Part shown: positions 935 to 38,381 of the stretch, in pieces
Numbering within the stretch: position 1 is the first letter of the stretch
Layout: each line of letters starts with the position of its first letter
Source: a virus
Lineage: Duplodnaviria > Heunggongvirae > Uroviricota > Caudoviricetes
Virus record (IMG/VR): IMGVR_UViG_2909303794_000008
Direction: 5' to 3' (one strand)
Length of the DNA: 38,381 bases
Program-made: the position numbers and the translations under genes
Notes under the pieces: model-generated
The model's input: only the letters and a program-made list of their open reading frames with translations
Databases searched by the model: none
Told to the model about the DNA's origin: nothing

Positions 935-2620
935 GTGAATATAAACGTCGCCGAATTGTTAAATGGGAATTACATTCTGTTATTATTTGTGGTCCTCGCG
1001 CTTGGGCTATGTCTCGGAAAGTTACGACTTGGTTCGATCCAACTGGGTAATTCCATTGGCGTTTTAGTCGTATCGCTGTTATTAGGCCAACAACATTTCA
1101 GCATTAACACCGATGCGCTTAATCTTGGCTTTATGCTGTTTATTTTCTGTGTTGGGGTTGAAGCCGGACCGAACTTTTTTTCCATTTTTTTTCGCGATGG
1201 GAAAAATTACCTAATGTTAGCACTGGTGATGGTTGGCAGTGCGCTGGTGATCGCCTTAGGGTTAGGTAAGCTGTTTGGCTGGGATATTGGCCTGACGGCC
1301 GGTATGTTAGCAGGCTCTATGACGTCGACACCGGTTCTGGTCGGTGCTGGCGATACACTGCGTCATTCCGGCATGGAAAGCAGGCAGCTCTCACTGGCAC
1401 TGGATAATCTGAGCCTCGGGTATGCCTTAACCTATTTAATCGGTCTGGTGAGTTTGATTGTTGGTGCGCGTTACTTGCCGAAATTGCAGCATCAGGACTT
1501 ACAGACCAGCGCCCAGCAAATCGCCCGCGAACGTGGCCTGGACACTGATGCCAACCGTAAGGTTTATTTACCGGTGATCCGCGCCTATCGCGTCGGCCCG
1601 GAGCTGGTGGCCTGGACCGACGGCAAAAATCTGCGTGAACTGGGTATTTATCGACAAACCGGCTGCTACATTGAACGTATTCGACGTAACGGGATTCTGG
1701 CAAATCCAGACGGTGATGCCGTGCTACAAATGGGCGATGAAATAGCGTTGGTAGGCTATCCCGACGCCCATGCCCGACTCGATCCCAGCTTCCGTAACGG
1801 TAAAGAAGTTTTCGATCGTGACCTTCTCGACATGCGTATCGTCACTGAAGAAGTGGTCGTTAAAAACCATAACGCTGTAGGTAAACGTCTCGCACAACTG
1901 AAGTTGACCGATCACGGTTGCTTCCTTAACCGCGTCATTCGTAGCCAGATTGAGATGCCGATAGATGACAACGTCGTGCTTAACAAAGGTGACGTTTTAC
2001 AAGTCAGCGGTGATGCCCGTCGCGTAAAAACCATCGCCGATCGCATCGGCTTTATCTCGATTCACAGCCAGGTCACTGACCTGCTGGCATTTTGCGCCTT
2101 CTTTGTTATTGGGCTGATGATCGGGATGATCACCTTCCAGTTCAGCACATTCAGTTTCGGCATGGGGAACGCTGCCGGGTTGTTATTCGCCGGAATTATG
2201 CTGGGCTTTATGCGTGCTAACCACCCGACCTTCGGTTACATTCCGCAGGGTGCATTAAGCATGGTGAAAGAGTTCGGCTTGATGGTGTTTATGGCAGGCG
2301 TTGGTCTGAGCGCCGGTAGCGGTATTAATAACGGTCTGGGCGCGATTGGCGGTCAGATGTTGATTGCCGGATTGATTGTCAGTCTGGTGCCCGTGGTTAT
2401 CTGTTTCTTGTTCGGTGCTTATGTATTGCGAATGAACCGCGCGCTGTTGTTCGGCGCAATGATGGGCGCACGTACCTGCGCGCCGGCAATGGAGATCATC
2501 AGTGATACAGCTCGCAGTAACATCCCGGCGCTGGGCTATGCGGGCACCTATGCAATCGCCAACGTCCTGCTGACGCTGGCAGGGACAATCATCGTCATGG
2601 TATGGCCAGGATTAGGATAA
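935..2620 (+). CDS. ybjL: putative AAE-family transporter YbjL (two TrkA-C/RCK_C-like domains)
   Basis: 561-aa ORF with N- and C-terminal membrane halves and a soluble middle; GTG start at 935; recognised as E. coli YbjL by sequence and synteny. Confidence 0.9.
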
Positions 2621-23876: not shown

Positions 23877-24901
23877 TGGGAAAGAGTAAGAAAAACCGCA
23901 CTGCGGCGACGAATCAGATCCAGCATAAAAGCCAGACTTCAGCCGAAGCATTCAGCTTCGGTGATCCCGTTCCTGTACTTGACCGCCGCGAACTGCTGGA
24001 CTATGTGCAATGCGTACAGACAGATCGCTGGTATGAGCCGCCAGTGAGTTTCGACGGTCTGGCTCGCACCTTCCGCGCCGCCGTGCATCACAGTTCCCCG
24101 ATTGCAGTAAAGTGCAACATTCTGACCAGTACCTATATCCCTCATCCTCTGCTCAGCCAGCAGGCTTTTTCGCGTTTTGTGCAGGACTATCTGGTATTTG
24201 GCAACGCCTATCTGGAGAAACGCACGAACCGCTTCGGTGAAGTGATCGCCCTTGAACCTGCGCTGGCAAAATACACCCGACGCGGATTAGACCTGGATAC
24301 CTACTGGTTTGTGCAATACGGTATGACAACCCAGCCGTATCAGTTCACGAAAGGCAGCATCTTTCATCTGATGGAACCGGACATCAACCAGGAGATCTAC
24401 GGCCTGCCCGGTTATCTTTCTGCCATTCCGTCAGCCCTGCTCAACGAGTCCGCCACGCTGTTCCGCCGAAAGTATTACATTAACGGCAGTCATGCTGGCT
24501 TCATCATGTACATGACCGATGCTGCGCAGAACCAGGAGGATGTGAACAACCTCCGCAACGCAATGAAAAGCGCCAAAGGTCCAGGCAACTTCCGCAACCT
24601 GTTTATGTACTCACCTAACGGCAAAAAGGATGGTCTTCAGATTATCCCGTTGTCAGAAGTCGCGGCAAAGGATGAATTTCTGAACATCAAGAACGTGAGC
24701 CGGGATGACATGATGGCGGCACACCGCGTGCCTCCACAAATGATGGGTATCATGCCGAATAATGTTGGCGGGTTTGGGGATGTGGAGAAGGCATCCACGG
24801 TTTTTGTACGTAATGAATTAAAGCCTCTTCAACAACGAATTAGAGAGGTGAACAATTGGCTACATGATGACGTAATAAAATTCCAAGATTACTCCTTGTA
24901 A
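23876..24901 (+). CDS. Q: portal protein Q
   Basis: ATG at 23876 overlaps the P stop (TGATG); the track start 23873 is TTG; P2 gpQ-like. Confidence 0.9.
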   Translation: MGKSKKNRTAATNQIQHKSQTSAEAFSFGDPVPVLDRRELLDYVQCVQTDRWYEPPVSFDGLARTFRAAVHHSSPIAVKCNILTSTYIPHPLLSQQAFSRFVQDYLVFGNAYLEKRTNRFGEVIALEPALAKYTRRGLDLDTYWFVQYGMTTQPYQFTKGSIFHLMEPDINQEIYGLPGYLSAIPSALLNESATLFRRKYYINGSHAGFIMYMTDAAQNQEDVNNLRNAMKSAKGPGNFRNLFMYSPNGKKDGLQIIPLSEVAAKDEFLNIKNVSRDDMMAAHRVPPQMMGIMPNNVGGFGDVEKASTVFVRNELKPLQQRIREVNNWLHDDVIKFQDYSL

Positions 24902-24904
24902 TTA

Positions 24905-24942
24905 AAGCCTCTTCTTTAGAAACCCATCCAAAGAAGAGGCTT
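24905..24942. terminator. 13-bp perfect inverted repeat between convergent Q and NTase genes (bidirectional terminator-like hairpin)
   Basis: aagcctcttcttt(24905-24917)/aaagaagaggctt(24930-24942), 12-nt loop; no clear U-tract. Confidence 0.4.
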
Positions 24943-24953
24943 ATTGCCACCCG

Positions 24954-25271
24954 TTATATACCACATACAAAATTGATCTTAACGCTTTTATCAACAACAA
25001 GCAGAGAAGTGCCAACAGACTTAATAAATCCCAGTTCATACTCTTCTGAATGCGTCATTGTAATAATATGAACAGGAACAAATAAATCAAGCTCCCGCAG
25101 CTTTCGCTTCAATAATAAACCATCGACACAATCACCTATCACAAGCATATCAATATCATTTGCATCGCAAAAACTCTTTAATGCTGACCCAAATACATAT
25201 ACATCCACCATATATAAACTATGATGGATAATAACATCACAGATCGATTCAATCGTATGTTTAAAATTCAC
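24954..25271 (-). CDS. minimal nucleotidyltransferase (Pol-beta superfamily, MNT-like)
   Basis: 105 aa with the GS-X9-DID motif (VYVFGSALKSFCDANDIDMLVIG); GTG start overlapping the upstream TAG stop by 1 nt; AT-rich. Confidence 0.6.
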   Translation of the reverse strand: MNFKHTIESICDVIIHHSLYMVDVYVFGSALKSFCDANDIDMLVIGDCVDGLLLKRKLRELDLFVPVHIITMTHSEEYELGFIKSVGTSLLVVDKSVKINFVCGI

Positions 25272-25930
25272 TACCGTGAAATTCTTCGTAATAAATCACC
25301 CAACTTGTAAAGCTCCACCCCGATACTTTGAGCAGCCTCTTTTGCCTGAGTCGTCAATCGTCCATTAGGATTGGAGGAAAAAACAACATCACAATTGCCA
25401 TGCAACCCTATCGCATCTCTTACAGAACCCGCTGTCATATCATAATCATTCGCAGCGATAATAACTAAGTCCGCCAAGCCACGTCTTTTAAGTCTATATT
25501 TTTTGTTGGTTTCTCGCTCTACAGAGCTTACATGTGAATGTTGATTGAACACTCTATTTATAAACAAATGCTCTTTATCAAGATGCTCAAGCGGATTATT
25601 AGCTCTTAAAGAAGATGCAATATGCCCAAATGAACCCACTCCTATTTTCTTTTGTTCTAGTAATCTCATTGCATCACCAGAGATAAATTCAACACCTCCC
25701 TTGACTGATAGAAAATCAATTTTTTTATTGTCTAGGTATTCATTTATCTCAGGACATGTTATCCGGCCAGTATTGATTGCCCCGATCAAATAGGTGTCAC
25801 CCTGTGTAGTATTAATCACTAAAGTACCATCACCTATCACCTCTATATTTTCGACACATTTATTTTCTTGTAATTTTCCTGCCATCCATGAAATATAGCC
25901 TTCACTCGCATTTATGCTCATTGGATTCAT
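25271..25930 (-). CDS. hypothetical protein, middle gene of three-gene cargo operon
   Basis: 219 aa; ATGA overlap with the upstream gene and 1-nt overlap with the downstream gene; no domain recognised with confidence (weak Rx6H HEPN-like motif RANNPLEH). Confidence 0.5.
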   Translation of the reverse strand: MNPMSINASEGYISWMAGKLQENKCVENIEVIGDGTLVINTTQGDTYLIGAINTGRITCPEINEYLDNKKIDFLSVKGGVEFISGDAMRLLEQKKIGVGSFGHIASSLRANNPLEHLDKEHLFINRVFNQHSHVSSVERETNKKYRLKRRGLADLVIIAANDYDMTAGSVRDAIGLHGNCDVVFSSNPNGRLTTQAKEAAQSIGVELYKLGDLLRRISR

Positions 25931-26622
25931 CCTATAAATAGTTCAGATGCAGCTTCTGGAAACCTACTACCATTAGCATCGGTTAAGCCCAAATGTTTTG
26001 ATTCAAAGTCATCTATATGAACACAAAGCTTTGAAAAAACATTCTTCTCATCTTCACTCATGAGGTGATAGTTTTGTTCAACCAGTCGCTGTACTTTTCT
26101 ATTGTTGGGTAAGATATGAGATTGTACTTTTCTTAACCATACTTCTGCATTTGGATTTTCAGGGTCAACGCTGTTCTCTTGGGTTGGTCCATATGTTACA
26201 AAAATGGTATTGTTTTCTCTGAAGTATTTTTCTAACTCCTGTCTAACAGATTCTCGATTGTCATATGTTTTAACACCAAAGGTTGCATTTATTTTATCAA
26301 TATGGCCGTTTTTCCAAGAACGGATAATTTCATCAGTAAAATGTTCCTCTGCCTTATCAATTGTCGTATGGCAATTAGCACATAGAAGAATAATGTTGTC
26401 AAAATGACCTCTCTGCTCATCAGTTAGATCAGCATTGGTTCTAGGTCCATTATCAATGGCACTAAAAATGTGAGCAAGTTCTCCAATTGTTATATTTTTG
26501 TCGCCAGCATCAACAAACAAAGGTTGCAAACATTGTGGATTTTGGCAAAAGCCACCTGAGCTGGCAAAAAGCCGTCTAACTGTATTAGCGTTTGGAGAAG
26601 CTTTTCCCCTACTGCAAGCCAT
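25927..26622 (-). CDS. HNH endonuclease-domain protein
   Basis: 231 aa; CQNPQC...GELAHI...N...LLCANCH (HNH with zinc-binding cysteines); ATG at 26622 with AAGG SD. Confidence 0.65.
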   Translation of the reverse strand: MACSRGKASPNANTVRRLFASSGGFCQNPQCLQPLFVDAGDKNITIGELAHIFSAIDNGPRTNADLTDEQRGHFDNIILLCANCHTTIDKAEEHFTDEIIRSWKNGHIDKINATFGVKTYDNRESVRQELEKYFRENNTIFVTYGPTQENSVDPENPNAEVWLRKVQSHILPNNRKVQRLVEQNYHLMSEDEKNVFSKLCVHIDDFESKHLGLTDANGSRFPEAASELFIG

Positions 26623-26710
26623 GAACTAACCTTAAAAGTATAGAAATTAGGATGTTAATTTATTACTGAACAACCCTATAAGCAAGCTTGCTAATTGTGG
26701 TGAGCGCGCG

Positions 26711-26729
26711 CTCGTATCCCCGCCACGCC
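26711..26729 (-). other. putative cos (cohesive-end) site
   Basis: minus strand reads GGCGTGGCGGGGATACGAG followed by CGCGCGCTCAC; the first 13 nt match the P2/186 cohesive end as I recall it (GGCG[A/T]GGCGGGGAAAGCA[C/T]); lies in the intergenic gap between the two cargo clusters. Confidence 0.35.
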
Positions 26730-26914
26730 TGCCCGCTTTATGTAGCGGTTTTCATGCAGGCGCATGATCTACGCAAAATCCCACCAGTTCTGGCGTGCCT
26801 TAGCAAAAACGATCCGCAAACGATCATGCGATCTCATGCGGCATAGTCATGCACTTACGGGGGAAGTGAAATCCCGTAACCGAATGACCGCTTGAAAAAC
26901 AAAACTCTCGTTTT

Positions 26915-34972: not shown

Positions 34973-35569
34973 ATGTCAACATCAAAGTACCCAAATGAGA
35001 TCAAAATAAATCCCAATAAAGGTGGTAAGGCTGCGATTGAGCGATTAGTCGAAGCTTATGGCTTTACGACACGACAGGCTTTAGCTGATCACTTGGAAGT
35101 ATCAAAAAGCACTCTGGCGAACAGGTATTTGCGGGATACGTTTCCTGCAGACTGGATAATCCAATGTGCTCTTGAAACAGGAACCTCACTGAAATGGTTA
35201 ACCACCGGGCAAGGCCTTAAGCAAAGCTCGCTGACAGCAGCTACAGAAGAGCTTGCCAAGTTTCGCCTTACCGCAGGCAAAATGATTGAAGATGGTTCAT
35301 ATGTCTTCGATTCATCATTTCTTCCTGCAAATCTTTCATCACCAATTGTTATTCAGGATGGGCTCGTCACATACATTTGTGATCAAAAATTTTCTGAAGT
35401 ACTTGATGGGCACTGGTTAATCAACATCGACGGAACCTATTCCATTCGAAAAATCACAAAGCTTCCAAAAGGTATGATTAAAATTACAAGTACAGAGAAT
35501 AGCTTTGAATGTGCATTTTCTGATATTGAAGTAGTTGCTTGTATAAGAAGTACAATAGTTTCAAATTAA
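34973..35569 (+). CDS. cI: CI immunity repressor (phage 186 CI type)
   Basis: 198 aa; N-terminal EAYGF...LANRY...CALETG...WL.TG and C-terminal WLINIDGTYSIRKITKLP resemble 186 CI. Confidence 0.8.
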   Translation: MSTSKYPNEIKINPNKGGKAAIERLVEAYGFTTRQALADHLEVSKSTLANRYLRDTFPADWIIQCALETGTSLKWLTTGQGLKQSSLTAATEELAKFRLTAGKMIEDGSYVFDSSFLPANLSSPIVIQDGLVTYICDQKFSEVLDGHWLINIDGTYSIRKITKLPKGMIKITSTENSFECAFSDIEVVACIRSTIVSN

Positions 35570-35589: not shown

Positions 35590-37266
35590 ATGAATTCATT
35601 TTCCATCGTTATATTCTTATTAGCATTTCTCGCCCCCATTCTAGCTGTAATATTATTTAAGCAAAGCAAAAAACATAAAGCGGCTATAGATACCTTGACA
35701 GCTAACAACATAGCCCTTTCCAACCAACTGAAAGAAAATCAAGAAGAATTAGCACAGACTGTACGAGATCTATCAGAGCTTGAAGGACGAGCTGCACCAT
35801 TATGGCAATACGTAGAATTGCACAGCGCAGTGATGGAAGCAGAGAATAAGATAAAAAATGCAGACTCAATAGCCAGGCAAAAAATAGAAGAAGCCCAAAT
35901 AAAGGCTGCTAAGACAGTAAACGAAGCAAATTATCAAGCTCAGATAAAAATAAGCAACGCTAATAGCGAAGCTATAGCAATTACTAAAGACGCTCGCGAT
36001 GCACGCCTGAAAGCTAAAGAACGTCTTGATAATGCCAATAGTAAAGCAAATGAGCTGATCTCAAATGCTAATGACAATGCAGTGAAAATTATTTCCGATG
36101 CAGAAGAAAGAGCAAAAGAGATTGCTGGTTCAGCATATGAAGCTAAAGAGTTTGCAGAAAAATATGAAGCAGTTGCCAAATCAATGAAAAATAAAATTGA
36201 AGGTTATGGTGATGAATGGATCATCCCTAACCGTAGCGTTCTCGATGAATTGGCAGAAAATTATGAGTTTACAGATGCAGGCAAGGAATTACAAAAAGCC
36301 AGGGAGTTAACAAAATCATTAATAAAAACTAATAAAGCTGCTTCGTGTGATTATGTTGAACAAAACAGGCGTAATACTGCTATCAACTTTGTTTTAGATG
36401 CCTTCAATGGAAGAGTTGACAGTATTTTATCAAAAGTCAAACACAACAATTTTGGAAAACTTTCCCAAGAGATAAAAGATGCGTTTCAACTTGTAAATTA
36501 CAATGGTTCTGCCTTTAGGTCCGCAAAAATAAGTGACATCTATCTTCAAGCTCGACTCAACGAGCTAAAATGGGGTGTTGCAGTTAATGAAATTATGCTC
36601 GAAGAAAAAGAAGAGCAAAGAAGGATTAAAGAACAACTTCGTGAAGAGGAAAGAGCTCGTAGGGAGTATGAAAAAGCGATAAAAGAAGCTGAAAAAGAAG
36701 AGAAAGCTATTCAGCAAGCTATAAATAAAGCAACAAAAGAGCTTATGCTTGCAAATGAAGAACAACGCTTAGCTTTAGAGCAAAAAATAGCTGAACTACA
36801 GTTAAAATATGAAGAAGCTGAAGCTAAAAACCAACGAGCTATTTCTATGGCTCAACAAACTAGATCAGGCCACGTTTATATAATTAGTAATATTGGCTCA
36901 TTTGGCGAAGATGTATATAAAATTGGAATGACACGCCGCCTTGAACCACTTGATCGTGTTCGTGAACTCGGTGATGCTAGTGTTCCTTTTTCGTTCGATG
37001 TTCATGCGATGATTTATAGTGATGATGCACCATCATTAGAAAATCATCTGCATAAAGTCTTCAACGAAAAACAGGTCAATAAAATTAACTCACGAAAAGA
37101 GTTTTTCAACGTAAATATTAAAGAAATTAAGTCTGTTATTGAAGATATGAACATCAACGCACAATGGACAATGTTTGCGGAAGCGAAAGAATATAGAGAG
37201 TCACTGGCGATTGAGCAAGAGCGCAAAGCAGCAACTTCCGCCAACGATGAACTGCATGTTGCTTAG
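35590..37266 (+). CDS. membrane-anchored coiled-coil protein with C-terminal T5orf172 (GIY-YIG-like) domain; DUF4041-like architecture
   Basis: 558 aa; N-terminal TM helix, long coiled coils with repeated NANS/KANE motifs, C-terminal GHVYIISN...VYKIGMTRRL...ENHLH...EFF motif; AT-rich; AAAGGA SD 20 bp after the cI stop. Confidence 0.6.
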   Translation: MNSFSIVIFLLAFLAPILAVILFKQSKKHKAAIDTLTANNIALSNQLKENQEELAQTVRDLSELEGRAAPLWQYVELHSAVMEAENKIKNADSIARQKIEEAQIKAAKTVNEANYQAQIKISNANSEAIAITKDARDARLKAKERLDNANSKANELISNANDNAVKIISDAEERAKEIAGSAYEAKEFAEKYEAVAKSMKNKIEGYGDEWIIPNRSVLDELAENYEFTDAGKELQKARELTKSLIKTNKAASCDYVEQNRRNTAINFVLDAFNGRVDSILSKVKHNNFGKLSQEIKDAFQLVNYNGSAFRSAKISDIYLQARLNELKWGVAVNEIMLEEKEEQRRIKEQLREEERARREYEKAIKEAEKEEKAIQQAINKATKELMLANEEQRLALEQKIAELQLKYEEAEAKNQRAISMAQQTRSGHVYIISNIGSFGEDVYKIGMTRRLEPLDRVRELGDASVPFSFDVHAMIYSDDAPSLENHLHKVFNEKQVNKINSRKEFFNVNIKEIKSVIEDMNINAQWTMFAEAKEYRESLAIEQERKAATSANDELHVA

Positions 37267-37349: not shown

Positions 37350-38381
37350 ATGGCAGTACGAAAACTCACCACAGGAAAATGGCTTTGCGAATGTTACCCC
37401 GCCGGACGTAGTGGACGTCGTGTACGTAAACAATTCGCCACCAAAGGCGAAGCTCTGGCTTTTGAGCGTCACACGATGGAAGAAACCGAAGCAAAGCCCT
37501 GGCTGGGTGAATCAGTGGATCGTCGAACACTGAAAGACGTGGTTGAACTATGGTTCAAACTACATGGTAAATCTCTGACAGCTGGGCAGCATGTCTATGA
37601 CAAATTGCTGTTGATGGTTGACGCTCTGGGCAATCCCCTTGCAACCGATCTCACCTCTAAAATGTTTGCCCACTATCGAGATAAACGTCTGACAGGAGAG
37701 ATCTACTTCAGCGAAAAATGGAAGAAAGGAGCAAGCCCGGTCACCATTAACCTGGAGCAAAGCTATCTAAGTAGTGTTTTTAGCGAACTATCCCGCCTGG
37801 GCGAATGGTCGTATCCGAACCCACTGGAGAACATGCGAAAATTCACCATCGCAGAAAAAGAGATGGCATGGCTTACCCATGAGCAGATTGTTGAATTGCT
37901 GGCTGATTGCAAACGTCAGGACCCAATTCTGGCACTGGTAGTTAAGATATGCTTAAGCACAGGCGCACGTTGGCGTGAAGCCGTAAATCTTACCCGCTCA
38001 CAGGTGACCAAATACCGAATTACCTTTGTAAGAACGAAGGGGAAGAAAAACAGAAGCATCCCTATCAGTAAAGAGCTTTACGAAGAGATCATGGCGCTTG
38101 ATGGGTTCAATTTCTTTACAGACTGCTATTTTCAATTTTTATCCGTGATGGAAAAAACGTCTATCGTGCTCCCTCGCGGTCAACTGACACACGTTCTGCG
38201 CCATACGTTTGCGGCGCACTTCATGATGTCGGGTGGAAATATCCTGGCCTTACAAAAAATTCTCGGGCATCACGATATAAAAATGACTATGCGTTACGCA
38301 CATCTGGCACCGGATCACCTGGAAACTGCATTACGGTTTAATCCGCTGGCAACACTACCAACATCAATAGCAAGTTTTTGA
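37350..38381 (+). CDS. int: tyrosine integrase (P2 Int-like)
   Basis: 343 aa; C-terminal catalytic region HVLRHTFA...LGHHDIKMTMRYAHL; stop at window end. Confidence 0.95.
   Translation: MAVRKLTTGKWLCECYPAGRSGRRVRKQFATKGEALAFERHTMEETEAKPWLGESVDRRTLKDVVELWFKLHGKSLTAGQHVYDKLLLMVDALGNPLATDLTSKMFAHYRDKRLTGEIYFSEKWKKGASPVTINLEQSYLSSVFSELSRLGEWSYPNPLENMRKFTIAEKEMAWLTHEQIVELLADCKRQDPILALVVKICLSTGARWREAVNLTRSQVTKYRITFVRTKGKKNRSIPISKELYEEIMALDGFNFFTDCYFQFLSVMEKTSIVLPRGQLTHVLRHTFAAHFMMSGGNILALQKILGHHDIKMTMRYAHLAPDHLETALRFNPLATLPTSIASF

Follow-up and report, generated by a model that had tools for sequence, protein, structure and literature searches.

In the window analysed here, i.e., the whole 38,381-nt stretch of IMG/VR virus record IMGVR_UViG_2909303794_000008 (Duplodnaviria; Heunggongvirae; Uroviricota; Caudoviricetes), we found that three consecutive small genes, which we call g1, g2 and g3, constitute a single co-inherited unit, associated more often than chance would allow. 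The module is carried as cargo by a P2/186-like prophage (coordinates in Table 1). The gene products are, respectively, a predicted HNH nuclease, a predicted tandem of a restriction-endonuclease-like fold and a predicted minimal nucleotidyltransferase (MNT). On balance, we favour the reading that the module is an anti-phage or toxin–antitoxin (TA)-like conflict system, with g1 as its effector.

With an alignment of g1, we scanned 100,044 species, each represented by a single genome, and obtained 192 relatives, the best 80 loci of which were analysed further, with their open reading frames (ORFs) assigned by profile searches. The order g1-g2-g3, on the same strand, is kept in 76 of the 80 species-level loci; three of the four exceptions are located at contig edges, and the fourth (L072) is decayed. 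The trio spans at least eight phyla, amongst them Pseudomonadota, Bacteroidota, Actinomycetota, Acidobacteriota, Gemmatimonadota, Planctomycetota, Chloroflexota and Omnitrophota. Genomic contexts centred on g2 relatives of 21–50% identity harbour the same trio, including in ocean and soil metagenomes. It is this strict synteny across phyla, combined with overlapping stop and start codons, that makes the three genes one unit, as an earlier annotation of the same DNA, made from the sequence alone (hereafter, the first-pass annotation), had argued. Amongst 5,426 complete Escherichia coli genomes, the module is present at ≥99.8% identity in 14, including that of ATCC 8739, and is always annotated there as three hypothetical proteins. 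Over the same 59 loci, the mean pairwise identity is 45% for g1, against 28% for g2 and 30% for g3, and these sequences therefore depict a conserved putative effector with fast-evolving partners.

Some copies are damaged. In L072 (8678-9199), the N-terminal half of g2 is fused in frame with the C-terminal part of g3, with a deletion and the loss of the GS motif. Both g2 and g3 are truncated in L050 (8690-9207), and in L092 and L095, g2 is cut after 78 amino acids by the insertion of a DDE transposase.

The synteny bears directly on the alternative that there is no system at all, but a homing-type HNH endonuclease that happens to reside beside two unrelated small genes. HNH genes are commonly free-standing selfish elements in phages, and Pfam supports the domains of g1 and g3 in this particular sequence only weakly, both of which would fit. 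Against this stand the co-inheritance of the trio, with overlapping frames, in 76 of 80 loci, the affiliation of the HNH domain with a clade of immune effectors, and the absence of g1 relatives (zero) from 50,697 phage genomes. We consider this alternative extremely improbable, and a chance neighbourhood of a homing HNH gene is effectively refuted by the synteny. Indeed, neither a g1 nor a g2 homologue occurs in these 50,697 GenBank phage records, i.e., the module is absent from them. Homology to a characterised non-defence module, which the first-pass annotation had named as one outcome that would overturn a defence role, did not emerge: no named system matches, and the homing-nuclease version is effectively refuted, as above.

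The two gene junctions are tight, though not both in the way first proposed. The first-pass annotation had deduced translational coupling from two overlaps. The one-base TAG/GTG overlap of g2 and g3 at 25271 stands; elsewhere, 36 of 76 loci have a 4-nt overlap at the corresponding junction, the start codon being ATG, GTG or TTG. The ATGA overlap of g1 and g2 at 25927-25930, on the other hand, depends on the first ATG of g2 and is probably unused, because in the RefSeq annotation and in most homologues, g2 starts at the second Met codon, at 25921, which is situated 5 nt past the g1 stop codon and has AGGA in front. At the g1/g2 junctions across the 76 loci, the genes either overlap by 8, 4 or 1 nt or are separated by 1–4 nt. 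Tight packing is a conserved property of the operon.

By sequence and modelled structure, g1 specifies an HNH DNase that is intact and belongs to the clade of immune effectors that includes Cap5, from the cyclic oligonucleotide-based antiphage signalling system (CBASS), and SPARHA (short prokaryotic Argonaute with HNH-APAZ). Pfam scarcely detects the HNH domain. With the PADLOC models, residues 8–125 match CBASS HNH effectors, SAVED-HNH proteins and PDC-M68A with E-values of 1e-22 to 2e-29. The closest solved relatives by sequence are the HNH effector 9om4 (1.7e-9), identified as SPARHA via PMC12738770, and Cap5 8fm1 (5e-7). The AlphaFold2 (AF2) model of g1 (predicted local distance difference test, pLDDT, 79.7) has the activated Cap5 tetramer as its top Foldseek match, with EcoKMcrA and ScoMcrA included amongst the lower-ranked ones. 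Residues C26, C31, E48, H51, N76, C81, C84, H85, D89 and K90 are kept in 85–86 of 86 homologues, by which the complete HNH motif with zinc-binding cysteines noted in the first-pass annotation is borne out, its residues being C26, C31, H51, N76, C81, C84 and H85.

All the elements typical of the Cap5/SPARHA type are present in g1, viz. the His-Me finger, the Cys4 zinc site, the catalytic His and the upstream Glu. The spacing of E48 and H51 is that of the “bridge” Glu (E50) and the catalytic H53 in SPARHA, where E50 forms an inter-dimer bridge needed for the active HNH tetramer (PMC12738770). The HNH domains of both Cap5 and SPARHA are inactive until tetramerised, whereupon they cut DNA indiscriminately (PMC12738770); by analogy, g1 likely shares this non-specific DNA cleavage gated by oligomerisation. 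The remainder of the protein (residues 121–231) is a conserved three-helix C-terminal domain in the AF2 model, for which a structural search gave only low-score, meaningless matches and no SAVED match.

The product of g2 is of a different nature. Searches of Pfam, NCBIfam, PADLOC and PDB sequences yielded no meaningful match for g2 and 60 diverse relatives, in agreement with the earlier statement that its domain could not be named. A word-indexed search recovered 12 clusters of relatives only, all enterobacterial; an exhaustive profile search gave 289 representative clusters (E ≤ 1e-3), with a length of 210–220 amino acids in nearly all of them. The AF2 model (pLDDT 92.5) comprises two copies of the succession helix, three strands, helix, strand, helix, strand, helix. 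Since its two halves are homologous to each other (hhalign probability 98.4%, E 1e-14), g2 is modelled as a fused pseudo-dimer, an internal tandem duplication of a restriction-endonuclease-like fold, the core of which is that of the Mrr-like and type IIS/ISP nuclease domains. Conservation does not extend to the canonical D...(D/E)xK residues, and there are no kept acidic or Lys columns on strands 2 and 3; we rejected g2 as an active nuclease on these grounds. In 80 of 81 sequences, Tyr160 (Tyr163 in the 219-aa ORF) is kept; no other residue is near-invariant.

A g2 of ~125 amino acids occurs in 16 of the 80 loci, mostly in Bacteroidota, and equals the C-terminal half alone. Loci of this short-g2 subfamily include L064-L067, L071, L075, L077-L081, L083 and L085-L087. 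The C-terminal half is the conserved core of g2. From the subfamily it follows that the long form originated in an internal duplication and that the short one probably functions as a homodimer.

A weak HEPN-like Rx6H motif suggested for g2 in the first-pass annotation did not survive. The actual motif is R-x4-H (R126...H131), located on a helix of an alpha/beta domain, where R is kept in 67% and H in 83% of homologues. We rejected g2 as a HEPN protein, its fold being an alpha/beta restriction-endonuclease-like tandem and not a helical HEPN bundle. Structure prediction of the 219-aa protein, put forward earlier as a check, has thus provided a fold, albeit not the HEPN one.

The third gene, g3, by its sequence specifies an MNT-family (Pol-beta superfamily) enzyme with an intact catalytic motif. 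The g3 protein itself has a weak Polbeta/NTP_transf_2 match, below the Pfam thresholds, but NTP_transf_2 is matched by 50 of the 61 members of its family. The family profile retrieves the solved MNTs AF0614 (3.6e-7), HI0073 (5.7e-5) and MntA (5yep; 8.8e-4), the MNT structures matched being 1ylq, 1no5, 2rff and 5yep. Across 61 aligned sequences, F27, G28, S29, D39 and D41 never vary and E76 hardly does, the motif being G28-S29-x9-D39-x-D41 (D-I-D in this protein). The enzyme looks active, given that the GSx9DxD residues are invariant and that the profile matches MNTs. Family members measure 90–105 amino acids; with 105 residues, g3 corresponds to the ~100-aa MNT-like protein with GS...DID first described. 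The Pfam and PADLOC searches proposed along with that description found HNH matches for g1 and NTP_transf_2 for the g3 family, and nothing for g2.

A second alternative is a nucleotide-signalling system. Under such a scheme, g3 would produce a small nucleotide signal upon infection, and g2 would bind it and then switch on the HNH nuclease, much as CBASS cyclases do with Cap5. With its 90–105 amino acids, however, g3 is far below the size of a CD-NTase, and its profile fits MNTs much better than cyclases: there was no PADLOC cyclase match for g3 itself and a weak one in two of 61 relatives. In addition, g1 is devoid of a SAVED or CARF sensor, and g2 is closer to nuclease folds than to CARF or SAVED and, one Tyr aside, has no conserved ligand-binding motif. 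We deem nucleotide signalling improbable and retain the conflict system with a g1 effector as the preferred reading.

The g2 fold raises another alternative, a restriction-like complex in which g2, as an inactivated pair of Mrr-type domains, would read a DNA feature (a modification, an end or a structure) and recruit the HNH cutter in the manner of type IV HNH enzymes, with g3 in an accessory or self-protective role. The likeness of g2 to Mrr-like and type IIS/ISP nuclease domains fits this scheme, as does the appearance of EcoKMcrA and ScoMcrA amongst the structural matches of g1, and there is precedent in modification-dependent enzymes, the HNH domains of which are recruited by separate reader domains (PMC12738770). 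On the other side, g2 has no conserved DNA-contact or catalytic motif and diverges fast, the best matches of g1 are abortive-type effectors and not McrA, and a strictly conserved, catalytically intact nucleotidyltransferase would be left unexplained. We give such a complex the same low weight as nucleotide signalling.

The operon is inserted between the portal gene Q (end at 24901) and a cos-like sequence at ~26711-26729, the core of which we take to resemble the 19-nt cohesive end of P2. The three ORFs were called on the minus strand where the first-pass annotation had placed them, and they are AT-rich as it had noted (G+C content of 0.35–0.38, versus ~0.55 in the flanking phage genes). An identical copy is extant in E. 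coli 14EC007, where a P2/186-like prophage features the terminase and portal Q genes, then the three genes and, beyond the operon, a cos-like sequence, genes for a KAP P-loop NTPase and a DinI-like protein, and replication gene A. The stretch 26706-26758 is near-identical to the cos region of a P2-hotspot fragment cloned by Rousset et al. (sequence of pFR109), and hence the operon is cargo between cos and Q. The gpA-gpQ/cos interval is a cargo hotspot of P2-like phages, home to old, tin and numerous validated systems (PMC9122126), confirming the first-pass annotation on this point.

The case for a defence role is contextual: it is suggested by the hotspot, by neighbouring defence genes and by a machine-learning call for g1. 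This prophage has, in addition, a PDC-S49 KAP NTPase and PD-Lambda-1. A second P2-like prophage has, at the same spot, a version of the module with 50% g2 identity, while on another contig, the module directly follows Gabija. In Phaeobacter inhibens (L111 4792-7749), it is located immediately downstream of an annotated Shedu nuclease on NZ_CP081234.1, a conjugative MOBP plasmid, next to the genes for the relaxase and the type IV secretion system coupling protein. Screening the 146 nearest-neighbour ORFs with PADLOC identified LmuB and AriA (three each), PtuA (two), GajA, HmaC, PD-Lambda-1, AbiEii and several PDC candidates; with Pfam, five integrases were found. In the DefensePredictor tables (supplement of PMC13092281), g1 (WP_000752436) carries the label “Predicted novel defense gene”, at a mean log-odds of 5.96.

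Other carriers are of mixed character. In Pantoea ananatis (L003, 7204-8969 plus flanks, and L004), the module is carried by a P4-like satellite with Psu, Ogr/Delta and an integrase. Its flanks there hold a type I restriction-modification system and a pair of a CbiA/ParA-like ATPase and a RelA_SpoT protein, maybe another cargo system. The g1 call in Pantoea has a 32-aa N-terminal extension, probably due to a mis-called start. In Alteromonas (L096, L099), the nqr operon is followed by a small variable island in which the module is accompanied by a DUF3644 protein, two unannotated proteins and a HipA-type toxin pair.

A tripartite TA or addiction module also has to be weighed, one whose main role would be to stabilise the mobile elements that carry it and not to exclude phages, with g1 as the toxin and g2/g3 as a two-part antitoxin. 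The module is found on plasmids, prophages, satellites and variable islands, once beside a HipA TA system; its genes are small and overlap, with translational coupling; g3 has its closest solved relatives amongst MNT antitoxins; and a copy disrupted by an insertion sequence is what one would expect of a dispensable selfish element. Its repeated position beside bona fide defence systems and in P2/P4 hotspots, however, speaks for defence, and the strong conservation of g1 over long evolutionary distances suggests selection on function and not addiction only. The two roles are not exclusive, many TA-like modules acting as abortive infection systems. Pure addiction seems to us unlikely, though less so than either signalling or restriction, and we proceed with the conflict system.

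How such a system would operate can be sketched. We tentatively propose, at slightly less than even confidence, a tripartite abortive-infection or TA-like switch in which g2 and g3 restrain the HNH effector, possibly by nucleotidylation. In uninfected cells, g2 and g3 would form a regulatory pair and g1 would be held inactive. A g3-g2 complex is probable because the overlap of their reading frames is conserved; in such a complex, g3 may keep the system off by nucleotidylation, with the near-invariant Tyr160 of g2 as the foremost candidate acceptor. As the most divergent component, g2 could sense a phage cue. Upon release, g1 would oligomerise in the way of the Cap5 and SPARHA HNH domains, degrade DNA indiscriminately and abort the infection. 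The more specific idea that nucleotidylation of the g2 Tyr by g3 gates HNH oligomerisation is drawn by analogy, and we regard it as rather doubtful.

Several observations weigh against the favoured reading or against parts of the proposed switch. Many neighbours in other species are housekeeping genes, and the neighbour counts are raw, without a background control. The DefensePredictor score of g1 is variable (standard deviation of 4.5 around the mean of 5.96), and g2 and g3 do not figure in the searched part of the tables (PMC13092281). Rousset et al. list the locus amongst the P2 hotspot arrangements as hypothetical proteins, and it was not cloned. Moreover, the module is rare in phages, with ~8 full-length relatives in IMG/VR and, as stated, none in 50,697 GenBank phages. 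The order of the genes, the partner preceding the MNT, differs from that in HEPN/MNT pairs. The nucleotidylation step rests on the analogy with MntA, while the partner here is not a HEPN protein, and the aromatic residue at the Tyr position of g2 could be a structural relic of Mrr-type nucleases.

Table 1. Features of the three-gene module and its immediate surroundings (positions in the 38,381-nt window)
Feature	Position	Strand	Remarks
g1	25927-26622	minus	231-aa HNH nuclease ORF, proposed effector
g1, HNH domain	26263-26622	minus	residues 1-120
g2	25271-25921	minus	216 aa; 219-aa ORF if the start is at 25930 (25271-25930)
g2, N-terminal half	25601-25921	minus	
g2, C-terminal half	25274-25600	minus	
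g2, near-invariant Tyr codon	25442-25444	minus	Y160 (Y163 in the 219-aa ORF)
g3	24954-25271	minus	105-aa predicted minimal nucleotidyltransferase, GTG start
g3, GSx9DxD motif	25149-25190	minus	
Inverted repeat	24905-24917 / 24930-24942		13-bp perfect arms, 12-nt loop; between convergent Q and g3
Intergenic leader	26623-26710	minus	cos to g1 start codon
Putative cos core	26711-26729		GGCGTGGCGGGGATACGAG on minus strand

On either side of the operon, sequence elements that may govern its expression can be discerned (Table 1). The inverted repeat between g3 and Q is likely a bidirectional terminator hairpin; a scan for consensus terminators missed it, the loop exceeding 8 nt and a T-run being absent. 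The promoter is presumably located in the leader between cos and g1, where a sigma-70 consensus scan gave no site above threshold upstream of g1.

The prophage harbours further genes of note. On the opposite side of cos, at the position of old/tin in P2, 27015-28958 (minus strand) encodes a KAP-family P-loop NTPase of 647 amino acids, with a match to PDC-S49, a candidate system of one gene in PADLOC (E 4e-160); “Reve”, a validated single-gene KAP-NTPase system from P4 satellites, is reported in a preprint of 2026. Between the genes for the CI repressor (34973-35569) and the integrase (37350-38381), an AT-rich ORF of 558 amino acids (35590-37266, plus strand) features DUF4041 and T5orf172/MUG113 domains and matches PD-Lambda-1 (E 4e-120), which by sequence marks it as a third defence cargo site of the same prophage. 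An ORF of 561 amino acids near the start of the window (935-2620, plus strand), outside the phage late genes, had no PADLOC match.

If validated, the module would be a compact defence system of ~1.7 kb, with relatives in 192 of ~100,000 species genomes, that current annotation tools miss. Validation would also assign a function to the g2 family, which has no Pfam entry, and would imply that minimal nucleotidyltransferases regulate partners beyond HEPN RNases. Were the nucleotidylation gate true, “type VII” enzyme–antitoxin control would extend from RNase toxins to a DNA-degrading abortive-infection effector, and would do so in a system found over most bacterial phyla. As for the hotspot, the Q-proximal side of cos in P2-like prophages also carries cargo, besides the old/tin side.

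The first-pass annotation could not assign the module to a named system, and neither could we. We found no named equivalent in PADLOC (v2.0.0, which dates from 2023) or in the literature, coverage of which was incomplete, and a 2026 preprint on P2/P4 is silent on it. The top PADLOC match of g1 is component A of PDC-M68 (2.3e-29), through the HNH domain, but only model positions 8–110 of 253 align, while g2, g3 and 60 relatives of g2 match nothing in PADLOC. We found no literature on PDC-M68 and rejected membership, the HNH domain being all that is in common. Shedu was likewise rejected, as g1 aligns only to positions 19–125 of one SduA model, its N-terminal HNH-like region, and DUF4263 had no Pfam match in g1. 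The “hp + hp + hp” system (3HP) of Rousset et al. 2022, which protects against P1, is also a three-gene cargo of the same P2 cos-proximal hotspot, likewise made of hypothetical proteins, but identity was rejected since the pFR109 proteins differ entirely in sequence and length; peptides of g1–g3 are absent from the supplementary tables of cloned systems of that study. With Mrr-like and PD-(D/E)xK nucleases, g2 shares the core fold of its model, but not a conserved catalytic D...(D/E)xK, and it has no sequence-level match to Pfam nuclease families.

Two known systems come closer. The first is HepT/MntA, the type VII TA system in which MntA, carrying the motif GSX10DXD, neutralises HepT via polyadenylylation of a Tyr (PMC7641770). 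Both modules combine an MNT bearing a GSx(9-11)DxD motif with a partner in an overlapping operon; amongst solved structures, g3 is closest to MNTs, MntA itself being one of them, and the partner, g2, has a conserved Tyr. In contrast to HepT/MntA, g2 is an alpha/beta restriction-endonuclease-like tandem in its model and not a helical HEPN RNase, a third gene for an HNH DNase is linked (76 of 80 loci) where HepT/MntA is a two-gene module, g3 is shorter (90–105 versus 139 amino acids in 5yep) and the order is partner, then MNT. The module thus has the MNT motif of the HEPN/MNT systems, but neither the HEPN-fold partner nor the two-gene composition. The second comparison concerns Cap5 (HNH-SAVED) of CBASS and SPARHA. 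Their HNH subfamily is that of g1 by sequence and structure, and in common are the zinc site, the catalytic His and, three residues upstream, the Glu that bridges dimers in the active tetramer. Yet g1 lacks SAVED and APAZ, the module lacks a cyclase and an Argonaute, and the three-helix C-terminal domain is unique to g1, which is paired with g2 and g3. CBASS itself was rejected, g3 having 105 amino acids where a CD-NTase has ~300 or more, and SAVED-HNH effector models aligning only via the HNH domain (g1 residues 9–122).

Taken together, the module is most like a hybrid of a HEPN/MNT-type regulatory arm and a Cap5/SPARHA-type effector. Its gene architecture is uncharacterised and draws in part on known components; the earlier traces of it are an unannotated entry in a hotspot survey and a machine-learning prediction.

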